The notes beneath the pieces were generated by a model. It had not been told where the DNA came from. It worked only from the letters and a program-made list of their open reading frames with translations, and made no database searches. The position numbers were made by a program, and so were the translations under genes. DNA of 64,000 nt from NCBI GenBank assembly GCA_964650255.1, contig CAZYQT010000001.1, forward strand, positions 39,964 to 103,963, read 5' to 3'. The stretch comes from an uncultured Candidatus Saccharibacteria bacterium (lineage in GTDB: Bacteria > Patescibacteriota > Doudnabacteria > UBA920). This document shows, piece by piece, positions 10,211 through 57,928 of this stretch; the stretch's first letter is position 1, and each line of letters starts with the position of its first letter.

Positions 10211-11560
10211 CTATTTAAACCCCGCCAACCCGCCGCGCATGAATGTGGTTTTGAATTCTTTCATACGGCCAAAGCCTACTGAGTCGCGAATAATGTCGCG
10301 CGCAAGGAATGCGGGCACGCGTGCCACTGTAAAATCATCATACTTTTGATTAATTTTATCCATAGCTTGCATTAGCTGGGAGCGAGTTTTGGCCCGATCT
10401 ACTGTTTCAAACAAATTCCCCTGCGTTACTTCTGGCACAAGGCCAAACACAGTCACGCCAATCAGGTAAGATTGTTTTTCAATTTCTTTAAGCTGTCCGC
10501 TTTGCTTCAGCAAACTCATGGCCTCCATATAAATTTCCCGGCCATCTTGCAGATAATGATCTAACTTTGCGCCTTTGCCCACATGCATGCGCTCAGGATC
10601 ATGCACATGCACGTGCACACCATTACCCATAACGCCATTTACGCGAAGACGAGCACCAACCATTTCCGACAACTTGTACAGCACAGAGCGCATTACATTT
10701 TGCTGGCGATACTCCTGCGGAATTGTATACATATGACCAATTGATTTCATAGTGCCGTCTGCGGCATCAGTTTGCTCAAACTCTTCTTTCCAGCTACCTT
10801 CGAGCTGGCCCATGCTGTGCAAATGATACCCTTGAATCCCGTAATGGGCTACAAGTTTACTCAAAGGATAATCACGCAAATCTTTAAGCGTACGAATGCC
10901 TAAGGTGCCAAGGTTGCGCTTCATACGGCGGCCAATACCAGGAATATCTTCTAGGTCGAGACGATAATACAACGCGTCCTTATCTTGCGGCCGCACCACA
11001 ACTAAGCCATCCGGTTTTTGTAGGTCTGATGCAATCTTCGCCACTAACTTGCTATAACTAACACCAGCACTACAGCGAATCCAGTCCCCGACTTCGGTCT
11101 TCATGCGGTACTTAATTTCCTGCACAATCTTCACTGCCTCAAACCACGGATCAGTTGGTACCCACTCACCAGCAGAATTCTTCTCACGGATGTTGCACGC
11201 TTTAGTTAAATCCAAAAAGGCTTCATCAATACTATACTTTTCCACCTTGTCTGTATAATCCTCAAACACTTTTAAAAACCGAGCCGTGTAATAACGATAG
11301 CGCTCCGGATGAGTTTTAGTAAGATGAATCTTCGGGTACAACTTGCGCGCCTCCCAAACTGGAGTACCAGTTTTAATGCCCCATCGTTTCGCCTCAACAC
11401 TAGCGGCAATAATGATGCCGCCCAAATGTTCGCACACCCCCACAGGCTCACCACGCCAAGCTGGGTTATCTTGCTGCTCAACCGTAGCAAAATAACTGTT
11501 CATATCGATGTGGGCTATAACAGGTGTTTGAGCTGATTCAATTGGATAATCTCTAGACAT
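10211..11560 (-). CDS. dinB: DNA polymerase IV (Y-family, DinB)
   Basis: IAHIDMNSYFATVEQQDNPAWRGEPVGV and SIDEAFLDLT are Y-family catalytic motifs. Start placed at the internal ATG (MSRDYP...) near 11560. The ORF-track start at 11611 is probably too long. Confidence 0.9.
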   Translation of the reverse strand: MSRDYPIESAQTPVIAHIDMNSYFATVEQQDNPAWRGEPVGVCEHLGGIIIAASVEAKRWGIKTGTPVWEARKLYPKIHLTKTHPERYRYYTARFLKVFEDYTDKVEKYSIDEAFLDLTKACNIREKNSAGEWVPTDPWFEAVKIVQEIKYRMKTEVGDWIRCSAGVSYSKLVAKIASDLQKPDGLVVVRPQDKDALYYRLDLEDIPGIGRRMKRNLGTLGIRTLKDLRDYPLSKLVAHYGIQGYHLHSMGQLEGSWKEEFEQTDAADGTMKSIGHMYTIPQEYRQQNVMRSVLYKLSEMVGARLRVNGVMGNGVHVHVHDPERMHVGKGAKLDHYLQDGREIYMEAMSLLKQSGQLKEIEKQSYLIGVTVFGLVPEVTQGNLFETVDRAKTRSQLMQAMDKINQKYDDFTVARVPAFLARDIIRDSVGFGRMKEFKTTFMRGGLAGFK

Positions 11561-11603
11561 TAAAGTGATAATTTGGCTTATTTTAATGATTATTTTACTA
11601 TAC

Positions 11604-11632
11604 TTGACCAATTTATAATATTATGATATAAT
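11604..11632 (+). promoter_or_regulatory. Sigma70-like promoter for avd: TTGACC (-35), 17-nt spacer, TATAAT (-10). GGAGGA RBS follows at ~11655
   Basis: ttgaccaatttataatattatgatataat lies upstream of the ATG at 11671 in the divergent dinB/avd intergenic region. Confidence 0.5.
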
Positions 11633-11670
11633 GTTAAAGTTCGAATAAAAAACTGGAGGAATTTTGTACA

Positions 11671-12159
11671 ATGTTTAGAACATGTTGCGCGCATCACGCC
11701 AATGTAGACGCTCAGGACGAGCAAATGCAGATGGACGAAATGCAAAGAGTTGATTGGCTGATTGAAAACGGCCACGTCAGCTATCACCCCCCCCCGACTC
11801 GGAATTTAACTCAACCTCCTTTATTTCACGCATTGTATCAATTGTATTGTTCATGGTATATTCGCTGTCAGACTCTGCCCAAAAAAGACCGCTTTGCTAT
11901 TGGACATAGAATTGAAAATTTATTACTAGATATGATCGTGAGTGTAACAGGTGCCTATCATACTAAAGATGTTTCTCGGAAAAAAGAACTTCTGTCCGAT
12001 GCTAACCTTACTTTGGAATCGCTTAAGGTAGTAATGAGACTGGCTAAGGATGTGCACGCTTTAGAAAAGCGCTGGTATATTAAATACGAAGCTCAGTTTC
12101 AAGAAATTGGTAAAATGCTAGGAGGCTGGATATCCAGCCTTACAAAAACAAACAGATAA
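11671..12159 (+). CDS. avd: DGR accessory variability determinant (Avd)-like four-helix-bundle protein (the family also annotated as 23S rRNA intervening-sequence protein)
   Basis: The C-terminal 110 aa align by eye with Bordetella phage BPP-1 Avd. LPKKDRFAIGHRIENLLLDMIVSVTGA corresponds to IPRKHGVAREMFLKCLLGQVELFIVAG. EIGKMLGGWISSL corresponds to EVGRILGSWIARV. The gene lies 35 nt upstream of a DGR template repeat. Confidence 0.75.
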   Translation: MFRTCCAHHANVDAQDEQMQMDEMQRVDWLIENGHVSYHPPPTRNLTQPPLFHALYQLYCSWYIRCQTLPKKDRFAIGHRIENLLLDMIVSVTGAYHTKDVSRKKELLSDANLTLESLKVVMRLAKDVHALEKRWYIKYEAQFQEIGKMLGGWISSLTKTNR

Positions 12160-12176
12160 AAACCTGTTTGTTTTTT
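12144..12176. terminator. Bidirectional rho-independent terminator (AAAAACAAACAG-loop-CTGTTTGTTTTT) overlapping the avd stop codon
   Basis: A 12-bp stem with an A-run on one side and a T-run on the other. It would end avd on the plus strand and the TR transcript on the minus strand. Confidence 0.5.
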
Positions 12177-12193
12177 AATATAAGAGTGACTTC

Positions 12194-12309
12194 GGACTGA
12201 CACCACGCCGATATCGTCGTTCGAATTCCTCGGATTCCACCTGTTGACATTGGCACCCTTGTCATCGGCCTTACCGAAATTCACAAGCTTGCCATCAGAA
12301 GTGCGAGAA
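12194..12309 (-). repeat. DGR template repeat (TR), 116 nt, intergenic, sense on the minus strand
   Basis: Direct repeat of 12607..12722 with 19 mismatches. 18 of these fall on positions that are A in this copy (coding/minus sense) and G, T or C in the other copy. Only 1 of the other 88 positions differs. This copy is rich in AAT/AAC/AAG codons in the target frame. Confidence 0.75.
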
Positions 12310-12501
12310 AGGGAACAAGTTTTTTACCCCATTCCATCTAATCAATACGGCTACATCTCACAAAAATGAGTAGTAGCCGCTGTGTAAATATGTGGCAACA
12401 TTCTTATTAAGAATTTGCACCAGAACAAGGCAAGCAGTTCTTCTCTTATATTATAACGGTGGCGAAGGTAATGCATGCACGACCTTTCATTAGCCACCCC
12501 A

Positions 12502-12510
12502 ATTATACCA
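12502..12510 (-). promoter_or_regulatory. Candidate extended -10 element (TGGTATAAT, minus sense) positioned to transcribe the TR in its sense orientation
   Basis: The same TGnTATAAT element recurs upstream of many minus-strand genes in this window. It lies about 190 nt upstream (minus sense) of the TR. Confidence 0.3.
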
Positions 12511-12525
12511 TAAATAAAACCGAAA

Positions 12526-12547
12526 CGAGCTCCCTGACGGGAGCTCG
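12526..12547 (-). other. GC-rich hairpin CGAGCTCCC-TGAC-GGGAGCTCG about 55 nt downstream of the VR/target stop. Candidate DGR cruciform or target-gene terminator
   Basis: A perfect 9-bp stem with a 4-nt loop, followed in minus sense by a T-rich tract (GTTTTATTTAT). Confidence 0.5.
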
Positions 12548-12601
12548 GCAAATGCATCAAAGGTTCAAAACCCAAAACTCAAAGAATCAAAAGAGAAGAA
12601 A

Positions 12602-14686
12602 CTAACGGACTGACACCACGCCGAGACCGTCGCTCGAAAGCCCCGGATCCCACCTGTCGACACTGGCACCCCTGTCACCGGCCCCACCGAAAAACACAAG
12701 CAAGCCAAAAGAAGTGCGAGAATTAGTCCAATCATACATAGTTTCCAGCATTCGTTCATCGCTATTTTTATATCTAATAGCAAAATCATACAAAGCTTCT
12801 GCTGCATTTCTACGGTGATTCTGGTTAATTTTTAATTCAGCTAAAGCTTTTGAAGCGGCTTGCCAGTCTTTATCCATAAGCTTTCTAATTTCCGTTAACT
12901 TCTCGTCAGTTACCTCTTTAGCTTCTGCTTCGCTTAAAGAATCTACTGTTTTTAAATAATCTCGTAGTACTGCTGTCTGTTGTATATAATCTTTTGAGGT
13001 TGAATTATCAATTACTTCCTGACTTACCAAAGCCCAACCTTCTCTAACAGGTTGCTTTTTAAAGAAATCTTCACCCTCATACCAATCTGTATCATATAGT
13101 GGCTTACCGTCTTTGTCTTTAAAAACTTCCTCTAATCTTTTATTTATATTTTCCATACTTGAGCTTCCTGATATTGCATATCTGAGAACCAGCATTTCGC
13201 CTTTTGCTTTTGCTCGCTCAAGCTCCGCATTACTATAAGGGACGGTACTAAATTCTGCACTCAAACTACGTTTAGTTAAGAAGGCCTCATTAAAGGCCTC
13301 AACACCGTAAAAATTCTCAGCCATAATTTCTTGAGCTTTTTCATAAGTAGTCGCACCTTTTTCGATCCTCTCAATCCTTTCGGAAGAAGATTCCTTTTCG
13401 AAAGTATCTATTACATCCGAAAAGTCGGTGTTCTCAGCCTCATTAATTTCTTCAGCAAGGCTCTTTCTTTTTGATTCTTCTGTTCGAGGTCTATACTCAA
13501 CTGTTCTGATGATTTCTGAAAGTTTATCTTTGTCTACTTTGCTTTCTAACTTATTTGCATAATAGTATTGCAACGCTTGCTGAAAGGTTTCGTTTATATC
13601 ACCGTTATAGAATTTCAAAATGAAATCCCGAACACGGCGAGGTTCCATACGATCATCATAAGTAAACGGCTGGGGCTGATCTTCAGCGATTTGTCGATTC
13701 TTAAGAAGCTCTTTAGCTGTTTTATGGAACTCTTCATACTTAGCCAAAATTTCTGGCAAACCCGGAATATCCTCAAGCTGTTCTGGAGTAAGAGCAGTAT
13801 CTCGAGAGTTTAAGTAATCTTTTTGTGGTACTTCTTGAGATTCCTTATCAATACCAAATAATGACTTAGTTGAATGTGAAAAAGTACTACTTGGAAGCTC
13901 TGAAGCCGCTTTTTTATAGACCCAACGACGTAACTGAGCAGGATCCATTGGCTCACGACCAATATATCCTTTCCCGGGTGGGTTCATTAAAGCGACAATT
14001 TTAGTACGCTCTTTATTTACTGACACTTCCTCGGAAGCATCTTCGGAAAGAACAACCTCCCCACCACGTTCAAGGGCATCTAATACTTCGTGCAAACGAA
14101 TAGCAATATTAGGCGCAGCAGCATTGTACTCATCTAAAATAATAACCTTAACTTTCCCCTTTTCCTGTCTTAGGCCAGATGTAACTTTACCGTCTGCAAA
14201 AATATATTCCGGGTCTTCTTCGCCTCGTTTATGAGGATTAGGAATATACCGCCCCATTAAATCTTCTACGTCCGTAGCACCATTTAAGTTTATGTAATGA
14301 ACTTCATAGCCAAGCTCACTTGCCATTTTTCTAACAGTAGTTGTTTTACCGATTGAAGTACCACCCTCAATAAGAATAGGTTCACCGTTTAAAAATGCTA
14401 CTGCTAAATCTCTTTGCATAGGCAAAGATAGTTCAGTGTCATTTATAAAGTCTTCATATTGTTCTCTCTTAGGAACATAGGCGCTTCCTTTAACTGTAGC
14501 TTTTTCTAAATTTACACCTAAATACGAAACCGAGGTTTCGGTTTCCTTAACTGGCTTTTGGTCTTCTAAGACCTCAGAGGTTTCAACCTTAGTCTCTGGC
14601 TCTAGCCCCTCTCCCATTTCTTCAGGAGTCAAAGCATTAAATTTTGTTTCAGATGATCCTGGCATAGATTTACACTTGGTATGCAA
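12602..14686 (-). CDS. DGR target protein: MoxR-like AAA+ ATPase (AAA_5-type) with a long C-terminal extension ending in the variable CLec-like region
   Basis: Walker A GGTSIGKTT and Walker B VIILDEYNAA lie in the N-terminal third. The C-terminus carries the VR, with a YDWTNS...VVSVR pattern reminiscent of DUF1566/FGE-type DGR variable regions. No signal peptide. An internal ATG (MPGSS, ~14665) may be the true start. Confidence 0.75.
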   Translation of the reverse strand: MHTKCKSMPGSSETKFNALTPEEMGEGLEPETKVETSEVLEDQKPVKETETSVSYLGVNLEKATVKGSAYVPKREQYEDFINDTELSLPMQRDLAVAFLNGEPILIEGGTSIGKTTTVRKMASELGYEVHYINLNGATDVEDLMGRYIPNPHKRGEEDPEYIFADGKVTSGLRQEKGKVKVIILDEYNAAAPNIAIRLHEVLDALERGGEVVLSEDASEEVSVNKERTKIVALMNPPGKGYIGREPMDPAQLRRWVYKKAASELPSSTFSHSTKSLFGIDKESQEVPQKDYLNSRDTALTPEQLEDIPGLPEILAKYEEFHKTAKELLKNRQIAEDQPQPFTYDDRMEPRRVRDFILKFYNGDINETFQQALQYYYANKLESKVDKDKLSEIIRTVEYRPRTEESKRKSLAEEINEAENTDFSDVIDTFEKESSSERIERIEKGATTYEKAQEIMAENFYGVEAFNEAFLTKRSLSAEFSTVPYSNAELERAKAKGEMLVLRYAISGSSSMENINKRLEEVFKDKDGKPLYDTDWYEGEDFFKKQPVREGWALVSQEVIDNSTSKDYIQQTAVLRDYLKTVDSLSEAEAKEVTDEKLTEIRKLMDKDWQAASKALAELKINQNHRRNAAEALYDFAIRYKNSDERMLETMYDWTNSRTSFGLLVFFGGAGDRGASVDRWDPGLSSDGLGVVSVR
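12607..12722 (-). repeat. DGR variable repeat (VR) forming the last ~39 codons of the target gene
   Basis: Counterpart of the TR, with substitutions only at TR-adenine sites (10 A>G, 6 A>T, 2 A>C) plus 1 G>T. The two copies end together in a GC-rich stretch GGCGTGGTGTCAGTCC (IMH-like) right at the stop codon. It encodes ...YDWTNSRTSFGLLVFFGGAGDRGASVDRWDPGLSSDGLGVVSVR*. Confidence 0.75.
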
Positions 14687-15086
14687 CTCCCGTATTCATA
14701 CGGATACTGTATCCTTGATTTTCCAATACTAAAAGATTTCGTTTTGTTATTAAAGCTATGACTGATAAATTCCTGTAGTCTGGAATAGCGATTTGGGATT
14801 GCATTTGAGTATGATCAAAAATTTCCACTTGCCCTGTGGGATATTGCATTAGAAAATCATACACATTTTTATTGATTGTACCGCTGAAAGTAAATAACAA
14901 TTTACCTGGCTTATCCATTCTATTTAACAACTCTGAAGTTCTATCTACTTTAATGAAGCCGACTTTCTTTAAAGATTGTTGTAGCTCTTGCACCTGGGTT
15001 TCATCTTCAGCGATGATTAAACCCACTTCCTTTTGACCAGAAGCTATACTCAAAAATTTCTTTAATTCGTCTCTTGTTTGTTCCAT
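14670..15086 (-). CDS. Hypothetical protein (138 aa) between the VWA and AAA+ genes
   Basis: ORF overlapping the upstream and downstream genes by a few nt (operon-like). No confident motif. Confidence 0.4.
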   Translation of the reverse strand: MEQTRDELKKFLSIASGQKEVGLIIAEDETQVQELQQSLKKVGFIKVDRTSELLNRMDKPGKLLFTFSGTINKNVYDFLMQYPTGQVEIFDHTQMQSQIAIPDYRNLSVIALITKRNLLVLENQGYSIRMNTGVAYQV

Positions 15087-15103
15087 AATATGCTTTAAAT
15101 ATA

Positions 15104-17296
15104 CTAAAATTTGTTGTAATTAGCAATTACCTCTTCAATTAAACCAGCCAATTTCCCAGCCATTTCCTCAATATTTACATTGGCCAGACTGTTTGGGTAA
15201 TACTTAGAAACATGTCCAGTACCAGAACCAATCCCCAAGCCAATTAACTTTTGATCGGTTTCCTCTATTACCTTTTTTATCATTCCTTTTAAGGGATACT
15301 GAGAACTTGGATGCTTAGACGATTCAACCGGCTCACCGTCAGACAAAACAATTAGAAACTTTTGATCCACTTTTTGTTTAGCCAAACGCTCTGAAGTTTG
15401 TTCTATAGCCCAACCATCGTCATTGTATGCAGCACCTCGACCCCGTACCTCGCTTAATATTTGTCCCATATTCTCTCGAATTTCTTTCGAGATAGGTTGT
15501 CCAAAATTCTGGTATTCATATATCTTGTCGTTGAATCCTAAAACTTCCAAATTTATTGATAAGCGATTCAAAACTTCAGTTAGTACAATCACTGCTTTGA
15601 AAGTTTCTTCTATTTTTTCACCTGCCATAGAACCTGAAAGATCAACTAATAAAGAAATAGCATAATCTTTTTCTTGAGGGAGTTCCCGTTTTTGCCAAGC
15701 CCGACTTTCCATGGCCGGTACGTCTTTGGCTTTTTCCTGAATACGGCGTTTAATGTCTATACGTTTGCCAGATTTGTGTCCGCCTTCCCAACCGCGCGCA
15801 CGACGCGCCACAAAGATGTCGCGCAAATCTTGCTCGAGTTTGTCTATAATAGGTAAAACTTCCCGTCTATACTGTTCATATATATTGGCATCTTTTTCCA
15901 TTTCCTTTGCCAACATGTCGCGATATTTTTGAATTTCAGATTCATCTATTTCATGACTTTTCCTTTTCTCTGACTTTGGAACGGTTTCTAATTCATTTAC
16001 AGGTTCAAATTCACTAGATTCTTTTTTGCCGCTTTTCCGTTCCTCAGCTTTTTTAGGATTATCCGATAGCTTCCCTTGAAGCTCTTCATTTAGCTCTTTT
16101 TCAAACTGATCCAAGGCAGCCTGAGCTCGCTCCGCAAGTTCCTGCTTTTGAGCTTCCGGCATTGATTCAATATACTCCTTAATTTTCTGCTTTAATTCTT
16201 CTGACAATGAATCGAGGTTAATTGGAGCGCCCTTTGATTTCTCGGATTCACTTGAGGATTCGCCATGCTCTTTCTGTTCTCCTTCAGTGCTTTCTTGGCC
16301 TTGTTGTTCTTGATTCTTTTGCTGCTGCTTTTTAATAGCTTCCTCAATAGCCTCTTCTAATTGTTGTTGTTGTTCAGGAGTCAATTTATCTTTCAACTCT
16401 TGAGGCAAACCCTGGCCAGAGCCACCCTCTCCTTTGCCCTGAGCATCTTTCATCATTTCCTGCATTTGCTGATCCTTCATATCCTCTTCGATCAACTTTT
16501 TGAAATCAGGCCAAACTCTATCACGGTTAATTTCGTAACTCTTTTTAGCGTATTGAGTGATTAATTCTTCACTGCTGTCGGCTTCCTGGCGAGACGGATA
16601 TCGCCACCAAGAATCTTGAGCCGCAGTCAAAGTTTTATTGACCACTTCTTTAACATCGTCTGGTAAATCTTCGCTTAATTCAAATTCTTCGCCCTTAGTT
16701 TCCTTAAACCACTGCTTGATATATTCAAAACCGGCCTGCATAAAACGAGGCTTATAACCCAGCTCATCGGTAGCAGTATTTTTTGCTTTTGCCTCAAAAT
16801 CTAAATCTTGCTCATAGGCGATCCCCATTTGCTCCTTAAACTTTGGATAGCTTTCAGCCACAAAATTATTATCCCGTGGGTCTTCAATGGCATTCATCAT
16901 AAAAGCAAACCCGGGTTCTTGCCATTGCTCGAGAGGAATAAAATCTGCTCTTGAAATTCTTCTATGACCCCCTTCATGTGAAATAACAAACCGCAAATAA
17001 TCCATAGGTTTGTCCAGCAAGTCCTGTGGGTCTATCTTAATAATATTTTTCTCAAAATCCCAATGCCAACCTTCACCTGGCTCATTGAGTTTTACCGGAA
17101 TCCGAAAATCCTTGCCAATAAAATAAGCAAGGGAAGATAGGATTTGCTGTTTGTATTTTATTTCAGACTGTTGTTCTGGAGTAAAGCTAGATAAAATCTT
17201 TTGCTCTTTATTCTCTCTTATAGCTTTATAATTAGGTCTAGCTTCTACCACCATACTAGCCCGGCCTATATCTGAAGTGCTTTCAAAATTCTTCAT
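15104..17296 (-). CDS. VWA-domain protein with an N-terminal HExxH metallopeptidase-like domain (DUF2201-type MoxR partner)
   Basis: SHEGGH (HExxH) near the N-terminus. Long K/E-rich low-complexity coiled region. C-terminal VWA with MIDAS DLSGSM. Genomic pairing with a MoxR-like AAA+ ATPase. Confidence 0.7.
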   Translation of the reverse strand: MKNFESTSDIGRASMVVEARPNYKAIRENKEQKILSSFTPEQQSEIKYKQQILSSLAYFIGKDFRIPVKLNEPGEGWHWDFEKNIIKIDPQDLLDKPMDYLRFVISHEGGHRRISRADFIPLEQWQEPGFAFMMNAIEDPRDNNFVAESYPKFKEQMGIAYEQDLDFEAKAKNTATDELGYKPRFMQAGFEYIKQWFKETKGEEFELSEDLPDDVKEVVNKTLTAAQDSWWRYPSRQEADSSEELITQYAKKSYEINRDRVWPDFKKLIEEDMKDQQMQEMMKDAQGKGEGGSGQGLPQELKDKLTPEQQQQLEEAIEEAIKKQQQKNQEQQGQESTEGEQKEHGESSSESEKSKGAPINLDSLSEELKQKIKEYIESMPEAQKQELAERAQAALDQFEKELNEELQGKLSDNPKKAEERKSGKKESSEFEPVNELETVPKSEKRKSHEIDESEIQKYRDMLAKEMEKDANIYEQYRREVLPIIDKLEQDLRDIFVARRARGWEGGHKSGKRIDIKRRIQEKAKDVPAMESRAWQKRELPQEKDYAISLLVDLSGSMAGEKIEETFKAVIVLTEVLNRLSINLEVLGFNDKIYEYQNFGQPISKEIRENMGQILSEVRGRGAAYNDDGWAIEQTSERLAKQKVDQKFLIVLSDGEPVESSKHPSSQYPLKGMIKKVIEETDQKLIGLGIGSGTGHVSKYYPNSLANVNIEEMAGKLAGLIEEVIANYNKF

Positions 17297-17386
17297 AGAA
17301 ATACTAAAATATTCTATAACTTAACTAAATTATGCCACAAATTGCTATGTTTTTCAAACAAAACACAAACTTGATATACTGACTAT

Positions 17387-17596
17387 ATGGGAATATTTGT
17401 GATTATTATGCTTGTTTACTTCCTAGCTGGAATTTTAATGGCATTATGGGACTTTAGAAAGATTCTATTTAAAAACCCGGGCAATCAAACTGCCAGCAGT
17501 CTTTTCATTGAACCACCAAAATTTTTAGATAACCTCTCTATCAGTACAGCGTTAACATTCATCCTAATTTGGCCAGTTAAATTATTGCTCAAATAG
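17387..17596 (+). CDS. Small membrane protein (hypothetical)
   Basis: 69 aa, two hydrophobic helices. First ORF of the AT-rich plus-strand block. Confidence 0.3.
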   Translation: MGIFVIIMLVYFLAGILMALWDFRKILFKNPGNQTASSLFIEPPKFLDNLSISTALTFILIWPVKLLLK

Positions 17597-17647
17597 CCAG
17601 AAAGAATTTCTCTTTTAAATAAAAGGTAAAGTAAGTATAATTGTTAT

Positions 17648-18076
17648 ATGAAATATATTTTCCTCGCTATTGCCACAATAGCCTTACTGGGAGCTAGTTG
17701 TAATTCTAGCACCAAACAAACTAGTGATTCCTTTGAGCGCAATTTAAAGTGCAAAGAAATTGCCACCCAGTTAGATCAGCAAAAAAGAGAAGATGAACAA
17801 AAATCAAAAGATGCAAAGCTTCTCGTTTTCACCTCTTTTGATAGCAGCGAAACTAAATATAGTGAGAAGTTGAATACATGTCTATATTCCTACACTCTAA
17901 ATATGTACGGAACAGGTGGGGTGCCAAATTCTCAAAGCAGATATCTGATTGATAGCTTAACCAACGAGGTATTGGCTCAATATACTACATCTGACGCGCA
18001 ATCTACCCAAGAAAGAACTGACGCACAAAAAGCATTCTATGATAAATACAGCGAACTATATTTAGGAACTAAATAA
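17648..18076 (+). CDS. Putative lipoprotein
   Basis: Signal peptide plus lipobox LLGASC. 142 aa, AT-rich codon usage. Confidence 0.5.
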   Translation: MKYIFLAIATIALLGASCNSSTKQTSDSFERNLKCKEIATQLDQQKREDEQKSKDAKLLVFTSFDSSETKYSEKLNTCLYSYTLNMYGTGGVPNSQSRYLIDSLTNEVLAQYTTSDAQSTQERTDAQKAFYDKYSELYLGTK

Positions 18077-18083
18077 AATCAAA

Positions 18084-18785
18084 ATGCTATTTAAAAACTT
18101 CTTTCGTAAAGATTTAAACTTAAAGAATCGGTGGTGGCATCGGTTACTACTCGTACTTTTCTTCGTTTCATTCGCTGTCAGCTTATTGTATGCAACATTT
18201 CACACTGGACAACCAGACAGATATCGCCAGGTTAGTAGTCTGAAAGATAGGATGACTAATAATTTAACAAAAATTGGAGATTTAGTTAAACCAGGAGAAA
18301 GAATCGGTGAAAACGAGAATAGAATCAATGATGATCTCTACTATAAAAACGGAGGCTTTTTACTAAGTCAAAATATTTATTGTGCAAAGAATGTTACAAA
18401 CCATGTTGATGACTTTGCCAAGTCTAATGGAGCATCACATTTTAAAGGCAATGATGCTATTATTATGGCTAGTTCACAAGTATCATCCGATGAGTTCAAA
18501 CACTACCTTACTTCAGAATCAGGTAACTGTATAGAAATTGCCAATCTGAGTGATTACGAAAATAAGAACATAATATGGTCTGGAATAGACAAGGTTGTGG
18601 AAAGGTCTGTATTCACAAACTCTATGGATGTATGGACACTAGACCATACGAAAACAAACCTTAATAGGATATTTAATCCCGCCTATCTTGGGATATTAAT
18701 ATTATTTGGAATTATTATGATTCTATACTACAAAGTATTGCTATATATAATTTTCGGTAATAATAAACAATATGAAAATAAATAA
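18084..18785 (+). CDS. Membrane protein with N- and C-terminal TM helices (hypothetical)
   Basis: 233 aa. 8-nt gap to the upstream gene. Confidence 0.45.
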   Translation: MLFKNFFRKDLNLKNRWWHRLLLVLFFVSFAVSLLYATFHTGQPDRYRQVSSLKDRMTNNLTKIGDLVKPGERIGENENRINDDLYYKNGGFLLSQNIYCAKNVTNHVDDFAKSNGASHFKGNDAIIMASSQVSSDEFKHYLTSESGNCIEIANLSDYENKNIIWSGIDKVVERSVFTNSMDVWTLDHTKTNLNRIFNPAYLGILILFGIIMILYYKVLLYIIFGNNKQYENK

Positions 18786-19008
18786 AGATAGAATAATTAT
18801 TATAGTTTTAATACTCTTACTAATTTGGTTCGCCACTGCCATTATTAGATTAGAAAATTATCATTATGCCGTTCAGGTAGGAATGTGTGAAAATACTACT
18901 GAAATTGAACCATTTAAACAGCGTATGGAATTAGAGGATTGCTTAAATCATACCCAAACTAGAACGAGTCCCATCTGGCACTTATTCTATGGGTTGAGAA
19001 TATTTTAA
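18772..19008 (+). CDS. Small membrane protein (hypothetical)
   Basis: 78 aa with an N-terminal TM. Overlaps the upstream gene by 14 nt. Confidence 0.35.
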   Translation: MKINKDRIIIIVLILLLIWFATAIIRLENYHYAVQVGMCENTTEIEPFKQRMELEDCLNHTQTRTSPIWHLFYGLRIF

Positions 19009-19012
19009 ATTT

Positions 19013-19459
19013 ATGTGGTTTTTGTATGTAGTTGGTGTTGTTATAATCATCAGTATCATTCAATGGTTAATTAACAAACGCCGAGAAAAGATTAGAGAAC
19101 AAGTTGCTCACGATCTATTCGATAAATCAGACACAGAAACAATACTAGAAAATTACAAAAATAAACTTTCTGCAATCCTAATTACAACACCAAGAGAAAT
19201 TCCTAAGAGGATATCTTCTTGGGAACTAGCTCGCCTACCTAAATATGCTGCTAAAATAGCTGGGTCTGATTGTCCAAAATGTGAAAGCGGTTATTTAAAA
19301 GTAATATATACATACAACGGTTATGGTAGATTGCCATCCGTGTTTAGTTGCAGTAGTAAAGAATGTAATTATATTATTGGTTTAAAACAAGCCAAAGTGG
19401 AATATGAAAAAAATAACATCAATTCTTTTGCAAAAGATTTCAACCAAGTTTATCCATAA
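19013..19459 (+). CDS. TM-anchored protein with a C4 zinc-ribbon-like motif (CPKC...CSSKEC)
   Basis: 148 aa, N-terminal TM. Cys pairs are spaced as in zinc ribbons. Confidence 0.4.
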   Translation: MWFLYVVGVVIIISIIQWLINKRREKIREQVAHDLFDKSDTETILENYKNKLSAILITTPREIPKRISSWELARLPKYAAKIAGSDCPKCESGYLKVIYTYNGYGRLPSVFSCSSKECNYIIGLKQAKVEYEKNNINSFAKDFNQVYP

Positions 19460-20584
19460 ATGAGCTACTATAATAAAATTAAACTGGAGCTAACAAATCT
19501 GATAGGCTCTTTTAATTCGGCTAATAAACAGCTAGACGACAAATTGGTACTTCTCAAGCAAGAAGAAGACTCACTACAGAGAGAGAAAGATAAATATAAC
19601 CAGATAAAAAAGGAGGTGTTGCAGTTAGCTTTAGAAAGACAGAGGGGCTTTCCTACCTTAGCTAAAGCCTATGATGAATATTTTGCCTTACAAGATAAAT
19701 CTCTCATAGATTTTCTTAGATACAAGGATAGGCCAGCTCCAAGCGCTAGTGACATTGTAAAGGAGTATTCTAGAATAAAGAGAGAAGCTTTGAAAGACAA
19801 GAAAATCTTTCAATATTTGATTGAATACTACGAATCAATTTGCCCATTTCTTATTGAGTTAAAAGAAGAGGAATTATCTGATATAACTGAAGAAGATAAA
19901 CAATATCTGGTTGAGTATTCTGAAGAGGAGCTGGAAGATGAGGTTACAAAATACCTAACCAAAGAAGAATATAGGAAATTACCTACTGCCCAGAGAAACC
20001 AGCAAGCATTGGATAGATATTGGAAAAGGCCCAAATCTAAATGGCATATAGGGAAAATATACGAACGTTATGTAGGGTACTTATTTGAACAGCAAGGATA
20101 TCAAGTAGATTATTTTGGAATATTTAAAGGCTTGGAAGATTTAGGTAGAGATATCATAGCAACTAACAAGAATGAGATTGTCATTATTCAATGTAAAAAT
20201 TGGTCACAATTTAGGACAATATACGAAAAACATATTTTCCAATTTTTTGGCACTGTGTTCCAATATCGTGACGAGAATCCAAATAAAAAAGTTAGGGCTA
20301 TTTTTTATACCACTACCCAACTTTCTGATTTAGCGAGAAGATTTAGCAAAGAGCTAGGCATAGAATTACAAGAACAATTCAAATTCGATAAAAACTACCC
20401 TAGCATTAAATGTAATATCAACAAGCTAACTAAAGAAAAAATATACCACTTGCCTTTCGACCAAAAATACGACCACACTAAAATAACTCCAAAAACAGGA
20501 GAGCTATATGTTGCAACTGTAAAAGAAGCAGAGGATGCAGGTTTCAGAAGAGCTTTCCGTTGGAAAGGAGAATCGAATAAATAA
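19460..20584 (+). CDS. Mrr-like restriction endonuclease (PD-(D/E)xK, Mrr_cat) domain protein with an N-terminal coiled coil
   Basis: IGKIYERYVGYLFEQQGYQVDY...GRDIIATNKNEIVIIQCKNW matches the Mrr catalytic-domain pattern (G..E...LF...G+.V....G.D+.....+...IQCK.W). Confidence 0.6.
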   Translation: MSYYNKIKLELTNLIGSFNSANKQLDDKLVLLKQEEDSLQREKDKYNQIKKEVLQLALERQRGFPTLAKAYDEYFALQDKSLIDFLRYKDRPAPSASDIVKEYSRIKREALKDKKIFQYLIEYYESICPFLIELKEEELSDITEEDKQYLVEYSEEELEDEVTKYLTKEEYRKLPTAQRNQQALDRYWKRPKSKWHIGKIYERYVGYLFEQQGYQVDYFGIFKGLEDLGRDIIATNKNEIVIIQCKNWSQFRTIYEKHIFQFFGTVFQYRDENPNKKVRAIFYTTTQLSDLARRFSKELGIELQEQFKFDKNYPSIKCNINKLTKEKIYHLPFDQKYDHTKITPKTGELYVATVKEAEDAGFRRAFRWKGESNK

Positions 20585-20592
20585 TAATCTAT

Positions 20593-21246
20593 ATGACAAA
20601 CTTAGACGAATCCAATATTGATACTGACTACCCTGAGTCAGTTAAAAAAATAATTGAGGAAATAAACAAGCATAGGATAAAAGCTTTTGAAAAAACTCTT
20701 CCTGAAGGACTAACCTATGAAGATGTTAAGAGTGAGCTCGTAGAAACGTTGAAAGTGTATCATACCTGGCTAGACCATTGCTTCAAATACATTTTTGATA
20801 GTGAGAAGGTAATCGGACAACAGGTCAAAGAGATTAAATCAAAATTTGAGCAAAATGTACTTGAAGAGTTATTTAATAAGGAGCTTACAATTATACGGTG
20901 TGCTTTTGTCTATGCCTGGCTACAAAACTTTGAATTGACAGATTACGGAAAGAAAAATAATCAAGATACTTTTAAGTCACTATATAATCATTATAATCAT
21001 TCGTTAGAAAATATACTTAAATTAAATGGTAGACTAGAGGATAAAAATTGGATATTAGAAGGGCTTAATAAGTACACTTCCCCTACTAAATTTAGTCATG
21101 ACGATTTTATTGAAAAGGCTGCGGAAGGAGTAGCTAGAATCCCTTTTGAAAGCACAGAAGGCCGGCTCGGAGGTGGGCTTTATGATGGACTAACGCTCCT
21201 GATACAAAATACAATACAAAATGATAAGACCACCTTACTTGAATAA
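20593..21246 (+). CDS. Hypothetical protein (217 aa), last gene of the AT-rich plus-strand block
   Basis: ORF contiguous with the Mrr-like gene (9-nt gap). No recognisable motif. Confidence 0.4.
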   Translation: MTNLDESNIDTDYPESVKKIIEEINKHRIKAFEKTLPEGLTYEDVKSELVETLKVYHTWLDHCFKYIFDSEKVIGQQVKEIKSKFEQNVLEELFNKELTIIRCAFVYAWLQNFELTDYGKKNNQDTFKSLYNHYNHSLENILKLNGRLEDKNWILEGLNKYTSPTKFSHDDFIEKAAEGVARIPFESTEGRLGGGLYDGLTLLIQNTIQNDKTTLLE

Positions 21247-21279
21247 AAAAAGAGCTAAGCTGCCCTATTTGCATTGTAT

Positions 21280-21440
21280 TTAAGTTGATTTCTCCCACTT
21301 TCTTTGGACTTTTGGTCTTGGTTTTGGTATTTAGTTTTGGGGTATTTAAGTCAGTAGTTTAGTCTTGGTTTTAGGGTTTAGTTGGTTTTAAAGATATTTT
21401 TGGTTTTTAGTTAGATATTGTGTACCTTGTAGTACGGTGT
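21280..21440. repeat. GT-rich low-complexity tract (degenerate TTTTGG / TTTAGTTTTGG-like units)
   Basis: tttggacttttggtcttggttttggtatttagttttggggtatttaagtcagtagtttagtcttggttttagggtttagttggtttt... no ORF, strong strand asymmetry (G+T on the plus strand). Confidence 0.45.
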
Positions 21441-50242: not shown

Positions 50243-51781
50243 TTATCTCACTTTATAAACAATAATGTTGTTTTTGCTATAGATCTTTTCAAAATTTTCA
50301 TGACTGGGATCTTGCCTATCAATATAATCACTCAAGTTCCCATTACGTTTGGCATCAATAAACACAAACTCGGCATTTAAATCTTTAGCAACTTCGTCAT
50401 GAAGTGTTGTAACAGATCCCCAATCTTGCTTTTCATCGTCAGCCACATCGCGCCATTTCCAATACAAATCTGGGTCGTAAATAAACATGAAAGTCGGGTC
50501 CATACCAACCGGATAATAATTCTGACTGTCCCAGTAAAATAACTGCGGAAATTGATCCCACTGCGTGTTAATAACAATATCCCCTGGTTGGCTTTGCTCA
50601 GCCATTTTCTTAGCAACAATTTCAAACCGATGAGCTGACTCACCATCAGCTAAATAGGAATTTACGTTGTGGAAGTTGTACCAACAGGTCAAAACAATAG
50701 CACAAGCAACCACTACCAATGCCAGCCCAGCCTGCCAATGCTCCTGGCAGGTTTTTTTTATTTCTTGCCACTTCAGTTGAGCTAAATATGGAGACAAAGT
50801 TATGGCCGCAGAGAGCACTGCAAATGGCACAAAATATTCAATGAACCTGCGGTGGCGCATGCACAGAACAAATAAAATTATAGTTGCAGCATTAATCCAC
50901 AAACTTTCCCATTTAATTTTTTTGTGATAAAACTCATGCCCAGCAACAATTAAACTCAAAATCCAGGCTAACAAAATTGGAACATCAGACTTTAAAAACC
51001 AACTCAAGCTATATGGCAACCACTCATTTCCAGCTGGCACCTGGCTCCCTGCTCCAAGGCCAGTAAGAAAAATTTGATTATACAAAGACAACAACAAATT
51101 GGCGTGATGCGGGTGGAGCACTAACCCAAGAACTATTCCTGCCGCGCTGGCAATTAATGGAATGAAAGCAAACTTGCGCTCTAAAATAAATATGGCGGCA
51201 AAGTAGGCGCCTAGAATTAGCGGAACAAACACGAACCCGCCATAAGTCCACACAAATAAAAAACTTGCTGCGACAATCCCTACGGCAGCCCAATTATTTT
51301 TGGTCCGCTGCCAGACAACGACCAAGGCCATAATTACGCTGAGCAAAGCCAAGGACAAAGTATTGGCTTTAACAAGATTAATTCGAAACAGAAAATCTGT
51401 TGAGCCCAACAATAGCAATGCAATCCACCATGGCTTTCCAGGAACTTTAAGCTGGCTAAGTAGCAAATAAAACGCTGCTATAAATATCATTGCAAATAAA
51501 ACTACTGACAAATACAACGAATCAGTATTGTTAAATGGGATTAGCAAAACATGATACAGAAAGTGTTGATCAGCAAACCCATCTTTCCAGGTAGTGTAAG
51601 TTAAATACGGAAACGAGCTGGTCAGTTGACCATGCTCAATTAACTGAGAAACTTTAGCATGATAAAAACCATCCGGATCTGCTAGCAATCCCCTGTTTGA
51701 GATTTGGAGGAAACCCATGACAGCAAGGCCCAAAACCAGACTAATGAAAGAATTGTTATTGAACTTGATAAATTTCCACAT
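50243..51781 (-). CDS. Polytopic membrane protein, possibly a GT-C-fold glycosyltransferase (ArnT/PMT-like)
   Basis: 512 aa, more than 10 TM helices with a C-terminal soluble domain. Adjacent to a paralog-like membrane protein and a GtrA gene. Confidence 0.4.
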   Translation of the reverse strand: MWKFIKFNNNSFISLVLGLAVMGFLQISNRGLLADPDGFYHAKVSQLIEHGQLTSSFPYLTYTTWKDGFADQHFLYHVLLIPFNNTDSLYLSVVLFAMIFIAAFYLLLSQLKVPGKPWWIALLLLGSTDFLFRINLVKANTLSLALLSVIMALVVVWQRTKNNWAAVGIVAASFLFVWTYGGFVFVPLILGAYFAAIFILERKFAFIPLIASAAGIVLGLVLHPHHANLLLSLYNQIFLTGLGAGSQVPAGNEWLPYSLSWFLKSDVPILLAWILSLIVAGHEFYHKKIKWESLWINAATIILFVLCMRHRRFIEYFVPFAVLSAAITLSPYLAQLKWQEIKKTCQEHWQAGLALVVVACAIVLTCWYNFHNVNSYLADGESAHRFEIVAKKMAEQSQPGDIVINTQWDQFPQLFYWDSQNYYPVGMDPTFMFIYDPDLYWKWRDVADDEKQDWGSVTTLHDEVAKDLNAEFVFIDAKRNGNLSDYIDRQDPSHENFEKIYSKNNIIVYKVR

Positions 51782-53342
51782 CTGGATTTTGATAAACTAA
51801 TTTTAAATAAGGCCTGCCTGTTGTGTCCAAACCGCCGTGGGAGCGAATTTCTTCATCCACTAAAATGTAATTGATATTTTCACGCTCAACAAAAAACTTT
51901 AATGGATCAATTCCATTAGGATGACTTGCTAATAACAACGGCACCGCTCCATACTTCAATTGAAAATTAACAGTCTGATCATAATGCCCCAAATAAACCG
52001 AGCATCCAGTTAGGCCTGGTATTCTATTACCAGTTTTATACGACGCCAAAATTATAGAGTTGCAACTGCTGGACCCAAATTTTAATTGATTAATGCCATC
52101 CAGCTCGGTTTTTTTAAGAAACCATAAATCTTTGTTAAACGAAATCTGGCGATATGTATTAATTACTAAAGAAATGTTTGTGGCTAAGAAAATGGCCATC
52201 AATAAAACCCCCGCGAGCCTGGCTAATTTGCCGCTATTTTCGCTAATATTAGTAAGCCAATTTTTTATACCGAAGAACGCCAACAAACCCATTGGCACGA
52301 ACATTCCCAAGCTTAGCTTCTGCTGGAATCTCGAAGTTATAGGATTAAACATCAATAATGAACTACCAACCAACCAAATTACTAAAAAGATTTTCTCATT
52401 AGTATTTTTTTTGTCCGACGTAAGTAGCCAAAATAATATAAATATAAAAAAGAATGCATATACCAACACCCAATTCATTACATTGGGCGACTCGACATTG
52501 GTTTGAAAAAAAGCCCAAATACTTAATGGGGCGCTATGCATGAATAATATCGCTTGGTAAAGTATGACAGGAGTTACACAAATAATCACCTTTAACCAAT
52601 CATAAAATACATATAGATTGCGATCTAGCCAATAAACATAAGCGGCGTACATTCCGGTGATGAGCAAAACTGAAACTAAATCGTAAGGGTGGATCAAGCC
52701 GAGAAGAACTATTAAACTTGATAGATATAACCACGAATACCTTTTTCGAGGCCTCAAGTATAAACTGAATATCAACAAAATAAAGGCTAGGCTAATTGGA
52801 TTCAGCACAGAAGCAAAAATAGAAAAGAAAATCGAACTTTCACTCTGAGTTAAATCCAGGGAATAAATTCCAAAAAACCAACCTAACCCAGATCCTAAAA
52901 ATAAAAACCATAAACTCCAAAGTTTGTCTTTATGATGAAGCCCGAGTGTTTTCAAAAAATGAGACAGACCATACAATAACAGAAACAAACCAAGTGTTCT
53001 CAGTAGCAAGATCGCAACATAGCTATTAACTGATATAGCCCTAGCTATTAAACCAAAAATGAAAAATAAAGGATGAAAAAACAAATTTGGATTTGGTAAT
53101 TCAGTCGAATTGAGCTGGGAAAACAAAAGGTGCCCTACCCTAGCCTGCTCAATCCAAGCCGCATAGGAACCATAATCCGCCCAGTTATGTAAGGTTAAAT
53201 TCATCAAAACATATCCATGAGGCTCATAGACCACCTTAGATAAGACAAAAGGAGCCCAAATGGCCGCCAAGCCAATAGCAACTAATCCAATAATAGAATA
53301 ACGGTACATGGCATAATTGTAATACAGCGTAGACAAAAACAA
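51756..53342 (-). CDS. Polytopic membrane protein, possibly a GT-C-fold glycosyltransferase-like (hypothetical)
   Basis: 528 aa, more than 10 TM helices, C-terminal soluble domain. Confidence 0.4.
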   Translation of the reverse strand: MFLSTLYYNYAMYRYSIIGLVAIGLAAIWAPFVLSKVVYEPHGYVLMNLTLHNWADYGSYAAWIEQARVGHLLFSQLNSTELPNPNLFFHPLFFIFGLIARAISVNSYVAILLLRTLGLFLLLYGLSHFLKTLGLHHKDKLWSLWFLFLGSGLGWFFGIYSLDLTQSESSIFFSIFASVLNPISLAFILLIFSLYLRPRKRYSWLYLSSLIVLLGLIHPYDLVSVLLITGMYAAYVYWLDRNLYVFYDWLKVIICVTPVILYQAILFMHSAPLSIWAFFQTNVESPNVMNWVLVYAFFFIFILFWLLTSDKKNTNEKIFLVIWLVGSSLLMFNPITSRFQQKLSLGMFVPMGLLAFFGIKNWLTNISENSGKLARLAGVLLMAIFLATNISLVINTYRQISFNKDLWFLKKTELDGINQLKFGSSSCNSIILASYKTGNRIPGLTGCSVYLGHYDQTVNFQLKYGAVPLLLASHPNGIDPLKFFVERENINYILVDEEIRSHGGLDTTGRPYLKLVYQNPDVEIYQVQ

Positions 53343-53392
53343 AAAGGGTAAGTGTGATGTTAATCACTCTTACCCTTTTGAAATACGACACC

Positions 53393-54775: not shown

Positions 54776-54785
54776 TCTTTTTCTC

Positions 54786-55346
54786 CTACGATTTTCCGTG
54801 TTTCTTTTTCCAAACCTTTAACCATGACTCACCAGCATAAGAAGCATTGTCGATAATACTACCAATCTCAGCGTTCTTTGCTTTTAGCGAACCCACAACC
54901 GTACCGGCACCAGACTGCAAATGGTCAAGAAGACTCTTCGCAACCATGTAATCTTCGATAACGGTTTTTTGGTATGCTTTCCATGGGCCAGGTGTCATAC
55001 CGGCATCGTGCTCGATTGCTTTCAATGTAGCTTCGGGGGTTTCCCGACATTTTAGCCTTCGATACAGCTCACGCTGGTCAGCATTGGTGAACGTTGCAAG
55101 CTTTTTTTCCCACGCTATTACTACCGCGGGTTTGGCCATTTCCAACGCCTTGTCAATGATCGTTTCATCGTATTCCGATTCCTTGACCATGTGGTCGATA
55201 ATGCGGTCCATCGTTTTCTCAACGACTGTAATGCCTGTGGACTGAGTTAGATGCTCAAACACAGGCCTTAGGATACCTTTCACAGCTCCGACCCCGCCCA
55301 TAATTGCGATGTCGAGCCCAATTAGTTGTGCAATTTTTTTCAACAT
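54786..55346 (-). CDS. Hypothetical protein (186 aa)
   Basis: ORF with tight spacing in a minus-strand operon. No motif recognised. Confidence 0.35.
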   Translation of the reverse strand: MLKKIAQLIGLDIAIMGGVGAVKGILRPVFEHLTQSTGITVVEKTMDRIIDHMVKESEYDETIIDKALEMAKPAVVIAWEKKLATFTNADQRELYRRLKCRETPEATLKAIEHDAGMTPGPWKAYQKTVIEDYMVAKSLLDHLQSGAGTVVGSLKAKNAEIGSIIDNASYAGESWLKVWKKKHGKS

Positions 55347-55361
55347 ATAATTCTCCCGATT

Positions 55362-57348: not shown

Positions 57349-57584
57349 ATATGTTACTCCTTATCCGTATTCAGTTTTTAATGTGCTTCAAAGCCATTTA
57401 GACTTTGGGGAAGTTACCTTCCCAGAGCAGAATTATATTGATAAAACCCTGTTCCAGAAAGATAATTGCTTTTATTTAATTAAACCATATTATAGCACTT
57501 TTTAACAAATATGTCAATATTTAAATACTATTGCTGTCTCTAATACAAAAAGTGGCTTATTTATGAGGATTTAAAAATTGCCCA

Positions 57585-57625
57585 CCAAAAAAAAGACCGG
57601 TATTTTTCAAATACCGATCTTTTGT
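57585..57625. terminator. Bidirectional rho-independent terminator (AAAAGACCGGTATTT-TTC-AAATACCGATCTTTT)
   Basis: A near-perfect 12-bp stem with one mismatch, A-run upstream and T-run downstream. Located after the stop of 57639..57920. Confidence 0.5.
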
Positions 57626-57638
57626 TAGATTCCCGGCT

Positions 57639-57920: not shown

Positions 57921-57928
57921 GATTGTTT

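Follow-up and report, generated by a model that had tools for sequence, protein, structure and literature searches.

In the prototype diversity-generating retroelement (DGR), that of Bordetella phage BPP-1, whose parts lie in the order mtd-VR/avd/TR/brt, sequence is transferred from a template repeat (TR) to a variable repeat (VR) with changes specific to the adenines of the template, the Avd protein (accessory variability determinant) serves as a cofactor, and the 3' boundary of the transfer is fixed at a GC-rich sequence for the initiation of mutagenic homing (IMH) (PMC5758913; bioRxiv 10.1101/2023.10.23.563531). The BPP-1 template needs flanking RNA, both upstream and downstream, which wraps the reverse transcriptase (RT)-Avd complex and positions the cis-primer, and predictions commonly place an Avd-binding stem-loop just past the TR on its downstream side (Handa et al., bioRxiv 10.1101/2023.10.23.563531). 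In the part of the survey of Wu et al. 2018 that is drawn on here (NAR 46:11, PMC5758913), architecture B3, TR-(avd)-RT, accounts for 90% of the DGR set from candidate phyla radiation (CPR) bacteria; the targets of the CPR VR class UVR4 match Midasin/AAA-ATPase (P-loop NTPase, category g1), the UVR4 fold being left unassigned. The present analysis concerns a cassette of this CPR type, found without an RT gene, in a 64,000-nt stretch of DNA from Patescibacteria (positions 39,964-103,963 of CAZYQT010000001.1, assembly GCA_964650255.1). This whole stretch is called the window, and coordinates below are positions within it (Table 1).

Like B3 as described in that part of the survey, the window has, in this order, a target gene with a C-terminal VR, a TR, and an avd gene on the reverse strand; the target is an AAA_5 ATPase, the host belongs to the Patescibacteria/CPR, codon positions 1 and 2 hold the A-to-N changes, and TR and VR have a GC-rich, IMH-like end in common (PMC5758913). 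The kind of DGR is already known, and the TR/VR pair is no discovery in itself. Unlike B3, however, the window has dinB at the position of the RT, whereas the full order is present in the related loci L002, L003, L009, and L096 (L-numbers denote avd-homolog loci or other contigs, L001 being the window's own). A structured 5' leader, a promoter of its own for the TR RNA, and a poly-C tract, all described below, are not in the account of B3 as given in the portion of Wu et al. used here. The window VR probably belongs to UVR4, an assignment made through the Midasin/AAA description rather than through that paper's alignments.

The likeness to BPP-1 lies in the adenine-specific transfer, the Avd cofactor, the fixed 3' boundary at a GC-rich IMH, the GC-rich inverted repeat downstream of the VR, and the placement of the TR within structured flanking RNA. 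In contrast to BPP-1, avd is inverted in the window and stands between the TR and the RT position, there is no RT, the conserved RNA structure lies mostly upstream of the TR instead of in a 140-nt downstream spacer, and the target is a cytoplasmic-type AAA+ ATPase rather than a phage tail fiber.

Taken together, the comparisons below have led to a reading of the locus, held at a probability of about 0.6, as an incomplete, RT-less copy of a CPR-type DGR: the RT would have been lost at the poly-C tract, the VR frozen, and the element left nonautonomous unless an RT is supplied in trans.

Table 1. Coordinates of the cassette, its RNA elements, and its neighbors, with the positions of poly-C tracts in other avd loci.
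Feature	Position	Strand	Basis or remark
VWA/CobT_C-like protein, 730 aa, first gene of target operon	15104..17296	-	Pfam CobT_C 6e-16, VWA 1.6e-6; same position in related cassettes, 52-80% identity
Conserved small protein, 138 aa, middle gene of operon	14670..15086	-	between VWA and AAA genes in relatives, 32-81% identity
DGR target, 687-aa AAA_5 (MoxR/Midasin-like) ATPase with C-terminal variable tip	12602..14665	-	Pfam AAA_5 2.9e-12, residues 104-254
VR	12606..12722	-	last 39 codons of target gene; 18/19 differences at TR adenines
IMH-like GC-rich 3' end GGCGTGGTGTCAGTCC	VR 12607..12622, TR 12194..12209	-	16 nt, identical in both copies
GC-rich hairpin CGAGCTCCC-GTCA-GGGAGCTCG with T-tract	12526..12547	-	9 bp, 59 nt past VR; terminator scan
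Predicted extended -10 promoter TGgTATAAT of TR RNA	12502..12510	-	TGnTAnAAT at same alignment position in most of 24 loci
Structured 5' leader of DGR RNA, ~186 nt, 5' start GGCUAAUGAAAG	12310..12495	-	alignment A2, RNAalifold
Leader helix H1	12486-12477/12474-12465	-	covariation well supported
Leader helix H3 (long-range)	12433-12422/12335-12324	-	covariation well supported
Leader helix H5	12380-12373/12354-12347	-	covariation well supported
TR	12193..12309	-	noncoding; 28 adenines, mostly in AAY/AAG/GAY-type codons of VR frame; aligns with TRs of relatives
CCGAAGT motif astride TR 3' end	12189..12195	-	A2 columns C303-T309; CCGAA invariant in 18/18 loci, GT nearly invariant
Hairpin AAACAAACAG-GTTTTTAT-CTGTTTGTTT between TR and avd stop codon	12146..12173	.	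read from sequence; equivalent stem in A2 relatives
avd, 162-aa ORF	11671..12159	+	Pfam bAvd PF22296 6.9e-16, 59.1 bits versus cutoff 40
C9 homopolymer in avd ORF (codes PPP)	11787..11795	+	only G/C run of at least 8 in window
Promoter-like TTGACC-17-TATAAT (with TG)	11604..11632	+	11/12 match to sigma-70 consensus; then GGAGG, ATG 11671
DNA polymerase IV (DinB, Y family), flanking gene outside element	10211..11560	-	Pfam IMS 1.6e-37, IMS_C, IMS_HHH_1
Poly-C tracts, closer relatives and others	L002 9909; L096 9262; L009 9825/9855/9960; L027 61; L029 1; L032 3325; L035 10006
Poly-C tracts, remaining loci	L040 4989; L057 10000; L059 333; L062 10000; L082 9998

A TR/VR pair of DGR origin

Between 9 and 17 kb, the window has a single long direct-repeat family, consisting of two 117-nt copies that are 84% identical and lie 413 nt apart from start to start; blastn finds no third copy in the window. 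On the minus (coding) strand, the copies differ at 19 positions from TR to VR (A>G 10, A>T 6, A>C 2, G>T 1). Changes are present at 18 of the 28 TR adenines versus 1 of the 89 other sites (Fisher one-sided p = 3.4e-13), which leaves an agreement of 88/89 at non-A sites, and every one of the 19 affects the first or second base of a codon in the target frame. At the single G>T site, relatives conserve the TR base G, indicating that the change arose on the VR side (alignment A2). Since relatives usually have 0-2 non-A mismatches (L017 has 6), this one is unremarkable. Exact matches to GGCGTGGTGTCAGTCC occur in the window only at the 3' ends of the two copies, which diverge 1 nt beyond it, and mutagenesis halts upstream of this IMH-like end.

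A first-pass annotation of this DNA had already described the repeats. The pair itself was recovered by the repeat search, and retabulation gave the same 19 differences, 18 of them at adenines of the intergenic copy and divided 10, 6, and 2 among G, T, and C. Its statements that this copy is intergenic, that differences are placed at codon positions 1 and 2, and that a shared GC-rich, IMH-like end precedes the divergence are borne out as well. However, the repeat length is 117 nt and not 116, and although the count of 28 adenines stands, there are 89 and not 88 other sites. The tabulation by TR base that had been proposed as a check was run, and mismatches are not spread over the four bases. 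The annotation had also called the pattern that of DGR mutagenic retrohoming. Here, the TR/VR assignment and the DGR origin hold, given that a bAvd gene adjoins the TR and that at least 25 like cassettes are known, but a demonstrably working DGR does not follow, as the window has no RT.

These results strongly support the repeats as a genuine TR/VR pair of DGR origin. Because the VR carries the adenine-specific signature, seen both in the sequence pattern and in the family comparison, it was written by a DGR process. A duplicated gene fragment that diverged by ordinary mutation or gene conversion would account for the existence of a repeat and for nothing more; the excess at adenines (18/28 A versus 1/89 non-A, p = 3e-13), the restriction to codon positions 1 and 2, the adjacent avd, and the same pattern in at least 25 orthologous cassettes with RTs leave this explanation a negligible chance. 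Ordinary paralog divergence is refuted by the adenine bias, the avd gene, and the family pattern.

The cassette in related genomes

About 50 homologs of the window Avd are detectable. Exact look-ups supplied locus contexts, as did 80 loci found among the species representatives of GTDB, all of them in Patescibacteria-like metagenome-assembled genomes (MAGs); the window genome is not among these representatives, in which the best Avd match is 82% identical. The cassette order VWA, 138-aa gene, AAA_5 with VR, structured RNA plus TR, (avd), RT is present in at least 25 Patescibacteria loci. The three-gene VWA/138-aa/AAA_5 operon is common to the closer relatives L002, L003, L009-L012, L015, L020, L022, L024, L045, L096, and others. 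At least 25 relatives have TR/VR pairs of 114-123 nt, mostly 241-476 nt apart (1,031 nt in one case), and their mismatches also lie almost exclusively at TR adenines: 15/15 in L002, 19/19 in L009, 15/15 in L096, and 22/22 in L045. The closest intact sister is L096, with identities of 89% for Avd, 83% for the target, and 89% for the RNA gene.

In most of the avd-homolog loci, the RT is directly divergent from avd, as seen by local tblastn; only 4 nt separate the start codons of the two genes in L003. Within the at least 25 paired loci, the RT adjoins avd in every case except L029, whose contig ends at the avd 5' end. The window TR/VR pair is a typical member of this group, and the window Avd is 82-89% identical to the Avds of RT-bearing cassettes. 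The NCBIfam model DivGenRetAVD also matches it (E = 5.3e-19, 68.5 bits), although under the curated cutoff of 80.

The missing reverse transcriptase

Several searches for an RT were made. Pfam finds no RVT_1 match in 40 window ORFs (open reading frames), including every ORF of at least 250 aa, and a scan of the six frames of the window for the motifs YxDD and [ILV]GxxxSQ gives no plausible ORF. Searching the window by tblastn with the RTs of two sister cassettes yields a best E of 0.07. A hidden Markov model built from 120 DGR-RT sequences reaches a best E of 0.19 (6 bits) against the six-frame window, while the control, L051, scores 1e-70. No RT remnant is seen in the 64-kb window, and the ~10 kb to its left contains no RT. 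Beyond this DNA, the scope was extended by a search of 5.8 billion proteins with the L002 RT, whose best 120 matches include none from the 114,566-nt source contig. Among the matches listed, only P0177 (74%) and P0178 (71%) are more than 70% identical to the L002 RT, and neither is tied to this genome: P0177 is from another sample (ERR14149686), and P0178 is on a 2,808-nt contig, equal in size to one that carries a different Avd. The window, together with its own Logan contig L001 (from SRR8893623), is the only locus that has enough DNA and the full VWA/138-aa/AAA_5 operon and in which no RT was found.

In intact relatives, the target operon is followed by a predicted terminator hairpin, a predicted promoter, a structured leader of ~190 nt fused to the TR, a second predicted terminator, avd on the opposite strand, and the divergent RT. 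The RT-Avd complex copies the TR RNA into cDNA with misincorporation opposite adenines, and this cDNA replaces the VR, recoding up to 19 codons of the C-terminal tip of the ATPase. In the window, a deletion or rearrangement at the homopolymer probably removed the RT. The window avd has acquired a new promoter-like site, a ribosome-binding site, and an ATG past the tract. With the RT gene missing from its usual place, the hypervariable tip is probably frozen, and because the target operon, the TR RNA gene, and avd are intact, either the loss is recent or the remaining parts are still used.

Another hypothesis is that a cognate RT encoded elsewhere in the genome, on another contig or in a second DGR, acts in trans with the local Avd and TR RNA, so that the VR is still being diversified. 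A DGR can serve targets remote from it, and its RT, Avd, and TR RNA work as diffusible components. Consistent with this, the cis elements are intact and look expressible, including the promoter and structure of the TR RNA, the promoter-like site, GGAGG, and ATG of avd, and the target gene, and only 1 of 89 non-A sites is mismatched. On the other hand, the RT directly adjoins avd in most related loci, and no RT of at least 70% identity from this contig or sample is among the best 120 matches, nor is one present in the window or the 10 kb to its left. The protein search argues against a cognate RT in trans, and this alternative, while it deserves to be kept in mind, is doubtful.

Several points weigh against a locus that has lost its RT and been frozen. 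Inspection covered 64 kb and a further ~10 kb on the left side, in a MAG that is possibly incomplete, which leaves room for an RT elsewhere. The TR, leader, avd, and target all look functional, and the agreement of TR and VR at 88/89 non-A sites fits an element still in use. Furthermore, in comparison with L096, L002, and L009, helix H5 of the leader shows compensatory changes that preserve its pairing and were apparently derived on the window lineage. The two assemblies in which the avd-dinB junction is found derive from one sequencing run. Finally, the protein cluster of the target has one member, as does that of Avd, and these clusters show neither activity nor inactivity of the element.

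If the RT-less reading is correct, the locus would be a clean natural case of a DGR cassette minus its RT only, which bears on how hypervariable genes become frozen. DGR finders that are anchored on the RT would miss such loci.

The avd gene and the poly-C tract

The avd gene adjoins the TR on the opposite strand, and the two converge on the putative terminator at 12146-12173. Homology to other Avds covers residues 40-162 (Avd alignment A1), while residues 1-39 form an N-terminal extension unique to the window; by tblastn, the match starts at residue 40 for L002 and L096 and at residue 51 for L009. The extension, MFRTCCAHHANVDAQDEQMQMDEMQRVDWLIENGHVSYH (11671-11786), reads in frame through the C9 tract. 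The site at 11604-11632 could, judging from its match to consensus, express this N-terminally extended avd. In L002 and L096, no canonical avd start is seen upstream of the conserved core, where only ATT or ATC follows a TAA stop.

The C9 tract coincides with the end of the cassette. By blastn, the window is homologous to L002 at the DNA level from 17247 to 11787, where the C9 run lies, and no further. The same spot, between the avd and RT starts, is occupied by C13 in L002, C10 in L096, and C16/C23 in L009. In the window, unrelated sequence of 225 nt follows the tract, and then comes dinB.

A junction that falls on a homopolymer raises the suspicion of an assembly chimera, the true genome having avd, poly-C, and RT. 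The breakpoint matches the poly-C tract to the base, Illumina assemblies often break at homopolymers, the contigs of L029, L027, and L085 end at or ~20-60 nt from poly-C, and L009 has N-gaps around its tract. However, a run of nine C residues falls well short of what would bridge de Bruijn k-mers, and the 225-nt segment that separates the tract from dinB extends the ORF in frame and supplies a promoter-like site and a ribosome-binding site. In addition, the synteny of DGR-free relatives places dinB at the island edge anyway, and the NCBI MAG contig and L001 give an identical junction: L001 matches window positions 11205-21320 at 100% identity, which reproduces the junction in an independent Logan assembly of SRR8893623. 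A chimera is consequently quite improbable. Two exact-pattern scans of JGI metagenomes, the first aimed at the RT-less junction and the second at the TR 3' end, gave no match, but that collection evidently does not contain these samples, since the L002 TR 3' end, which conforms to the second pattern, was missed too.

Poly-C tracts are not peculiar to the window. Of 90 avd loci, 14, which represent diverse Avd lineages, have one where avd begins, between the divergent starts of avd and the RT. These tracts measure 7-23 nt, are most often C9, and are typically the sole G/C homopolymer of at least 8 nt in 10-20 kb of AT-rich DNA. In L057, L059, and L082, an ATG lies right before C9, one nucleotide out of frame with avd, and in L096, the GTG start of the RT abuts the tract. 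Several contigs stop at or near it. A literature search found no paper that links DGRs with homopolymeric tracts.

One model makes these tracts a contingency element of this DGR lineage, a slipped-strand on/off switch for the expression of Avd or RT, which is also a fragile site. In the window genome, the RT would have been lost through it, with a "locked" receptor variant and a re-promoted avd as the outcome, or else an orphan cassette that is driven by an RT in trans. This model is speculative and, on balance, unlikely. If true, homopolymer instability gates or shuts down DGR mutagenesis in CPR bacteria, and poly-C at the avd/RT start is in any case a testable candidate regulator.

The TR-containing RNA

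The VR-TR interval was compared among 24 loci, and RNAalifold and covariation analyses used the 18-locus alignment A2. On the basis of these alignments, what looks like a spacer between VR and TR is a promoter plus a predicted leader, and the TR would be the 3' part of a discrete, structured noncoding RNA. Beyond the -10 box, the 24 loci share the conserved blocks GGCTAATGAAG, CTCGCC, ACTGCTT, TTCTGG, CACATATTTATACA, and GGATGGAA. Among the 38 pairs that RNAalifold predicts for the 18 loci, 23 show compensatory double changes. In the A2 pair counts, 95.8% of cells are paired, and covariation is 0.564 versus 0.254 after column shuffling (0/500 shuffles attain 0.564); a displacement of the partners by 1-3 columns lowers it to 0.07-0.14. 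Helix H2 is invariant among the A2 loci, so no covariation signal is possible for it. The TR RNA promoter, the helices, and the other elements are all preserved in the window. Rfam and tRNA scans of the window gave no match, and there is no Rfam model for the leader RNA.

Toward the 3' end of this RNA, the leader CGCC at 12464-12461 may pair with GGCG at 12209-12206, at the TR 3' end, through four invariant pairs. The CCGAAGT region astride that end is, we infer from its conservation, a candidate for the place where cDNA initiation is set up. The hairpin between the TR and the avd stop codon would be a bidirectional terminator and, by analogy with the stem-loops mentioned above, is possibly also an Avd-binding stem-loop. 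The hairpin past the VR has counterparts in 9 related loci, where CTCCC-nnnn-GGGAG lies 37-81 nt past the VR. It is probably the terminator of the target operon and possibly also an inverted repeat for DGR target recognition in homing. Compared with BPP-1, most of the RNA scaffold in this lineage appears to lie upstream of the TR. The family comparison indicates that, in B3-type CPR DGRs, the TR is the 3' part of a separately promoted RNA with a 5' leader of ~190 nt supported by covariation, which could guide the biochemistry of RT priming.

The target operon

The target operon spans 17296 to 12602 on the minus strand. As the first-pass annotation had stated, the VR forms the last 39 codons of the target gene. 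That annotation's 694-aa ORF (12602-14686), however, runs from a TTG; the likely start is the ATG at 14665, which gives 687 aa, and an identical 687-aa product is called in public data. Orthologs of the target are 50-86% identical and also have a VR after them. The 138-aa protein has no match in Pfam, PADLOC, or NCBIfam.

The fold of the VR domain was approached in several ways. A single-sequence AlphaFold2 (AF2) model has a pLDDT (predicted local distance difference test) of 40, too low to use, and a PDB search with a profile of 17 C-terminal domains found no relative. In a Pfam scan of the same 17 domains, one, from a distant family member, weakly touches FGE-sulfatase (9.4e-4). The TR-encoded motif (...NVNRWNPRNSNDDIGVVSV) and the endings ...LGFRVAVV of distant relatives recall canonical lectin-type VRs, a resemblance at the level of sequence.

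A third known system that the operon recalls is the MoxR-vWA "ternary" conflict systems, whose FGS (formylglycine-synthase-like C-type lectin) domain varies through the action of a DGR (Kaur, Burroughs, Iyer, and Aravind 2020, eLife 9:e52696, PMC7159879). Both have a MoxR-clade AAA+ ATPase, a vWA protein, a third component, and a ligand-sensing tip diversified by a DGR, which suggests a sensor or conflict role for the operon. However, in the described systems, the FGS is on the vWA protein and the hosts are typically multicellular cyanobacteria and proteobacteria (PMC7159879), whereas the window belongs to a CPR bacterium and has its VR on the ATPase. Furthermore, the third component of the described systems is VMAP, iSTAND, FtsH, or a beta-propeller, whereas that of the window is an unrelated protein of 138 aa; what the two share is a resemblance, not membership. 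PADLOC and NCBIfam searches of the island genes gave no defense-system assignment, the best PADLOC match being mad8 (4.8e-5), which covers the ATPase core only. An ATPase of an AAA+/vWA trio as the target hints at a sensor or conflict function, and DGR targets in these organisms are mostly unannotated.

The dinB gene and the island

DinB fills the place that the RT has in relatives. It has 3668 homologs at E < 1e-30, and its closest relatives, 81-86% identical, have the same synteny with no DGR there. The order shared with these DGR-free relatives is phosphoglycerate kinase (PGK), enolase, phosphoglycerate mutase (iPGM), RecJ, RNase H, PEGA, MreB, two small genes, DinB, a 107-aa gene, a histidine kinase (HisK), a response regulator (RR), SpoU, MraZ, and MraW. 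Relative to them, the window has ~10 kb extra, at ~11.56-21.68 kb, just upstream of dinB. By this comparison, the cassette is part of an island of ~10 kb with one edge falling between avd and the place of the missing RT.

The position of dinB has suggested one further explanation, in which DinB has functionally replaced the RT and copies the TR with the bias at adenines. Certain members of the Y family, human Pol eta among them, can act as reverse transcriptases and show an A/T mutation bias; moreover, the gene sits exactly at the RT place, and L051 also has dinB immediately downstream of its RT. However, the window DinB is an ordinary, highly conserved Pol IV ortholog with the same synteny in genomes that have no DGR, dinB is absent from the available flanks of the other 80-odd DGR loci, and L051 retains its RT. 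In addition, Avd-RT-RNA recognition is highly specific in the DGR that has been studied. The idea is therefore extremely improbable, and DinB was rejected as an RT substitute because it is a conserved housekeeping ortholog at a chromosomal position conserved in DGR-free relatives.

L051 (1-1560, on a 3.2-kb contig) belongs to a different DGR lineage, with an Avd that is 37% identical, and its RT is split by a frameshift at a C10 run. This RT is directly upstream of and codirectional with dinB (88% identity over 33 aa), in the same position and orientation as the window cassette. This arrangement would reflect either a recurrent insertion spot upstream of dinB or some link between DGRs and Pol IV. 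Another insertion, in the close relative L092 (7623-9899), occupies the same intergenic spot upstream of dinB and encodes a 758-aa protein with a faint match to the SBBP repeat, which supports the spot as a variable hot spot. In L096 (1-20117), the cassette lies between a type I restriction-modification system and genes resembling those of type IV secretion systems (T4SS) and conjugation (TraC-like, PrgI, TraG/TrwB-like, M23 peptidase). This context suggests that the cassette travels on mobile elements.

The island also has six genes at 17648-21246 on the plus strand, which are divergent from the target operon and absent in DGR-free relatives. Four encode proteins of 142, 233, 78, and 148 aa without matches, one a 374-aa protein that resembles Mrr_cat restriction endonucleases and has a "sunset" domain at its C-terminus, and one a 217-aa protein without an assigned function. 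The remaining window is housekeeping DNA of a small genome, including MraZ/MraW, MreB, RecJ, the glycolysis block, DnaX, and SecY. Farther along, a TrwB/TraG-like ATPase at 59222-61765 is followed by several large ORFs without Pfam matches (50243-59158).

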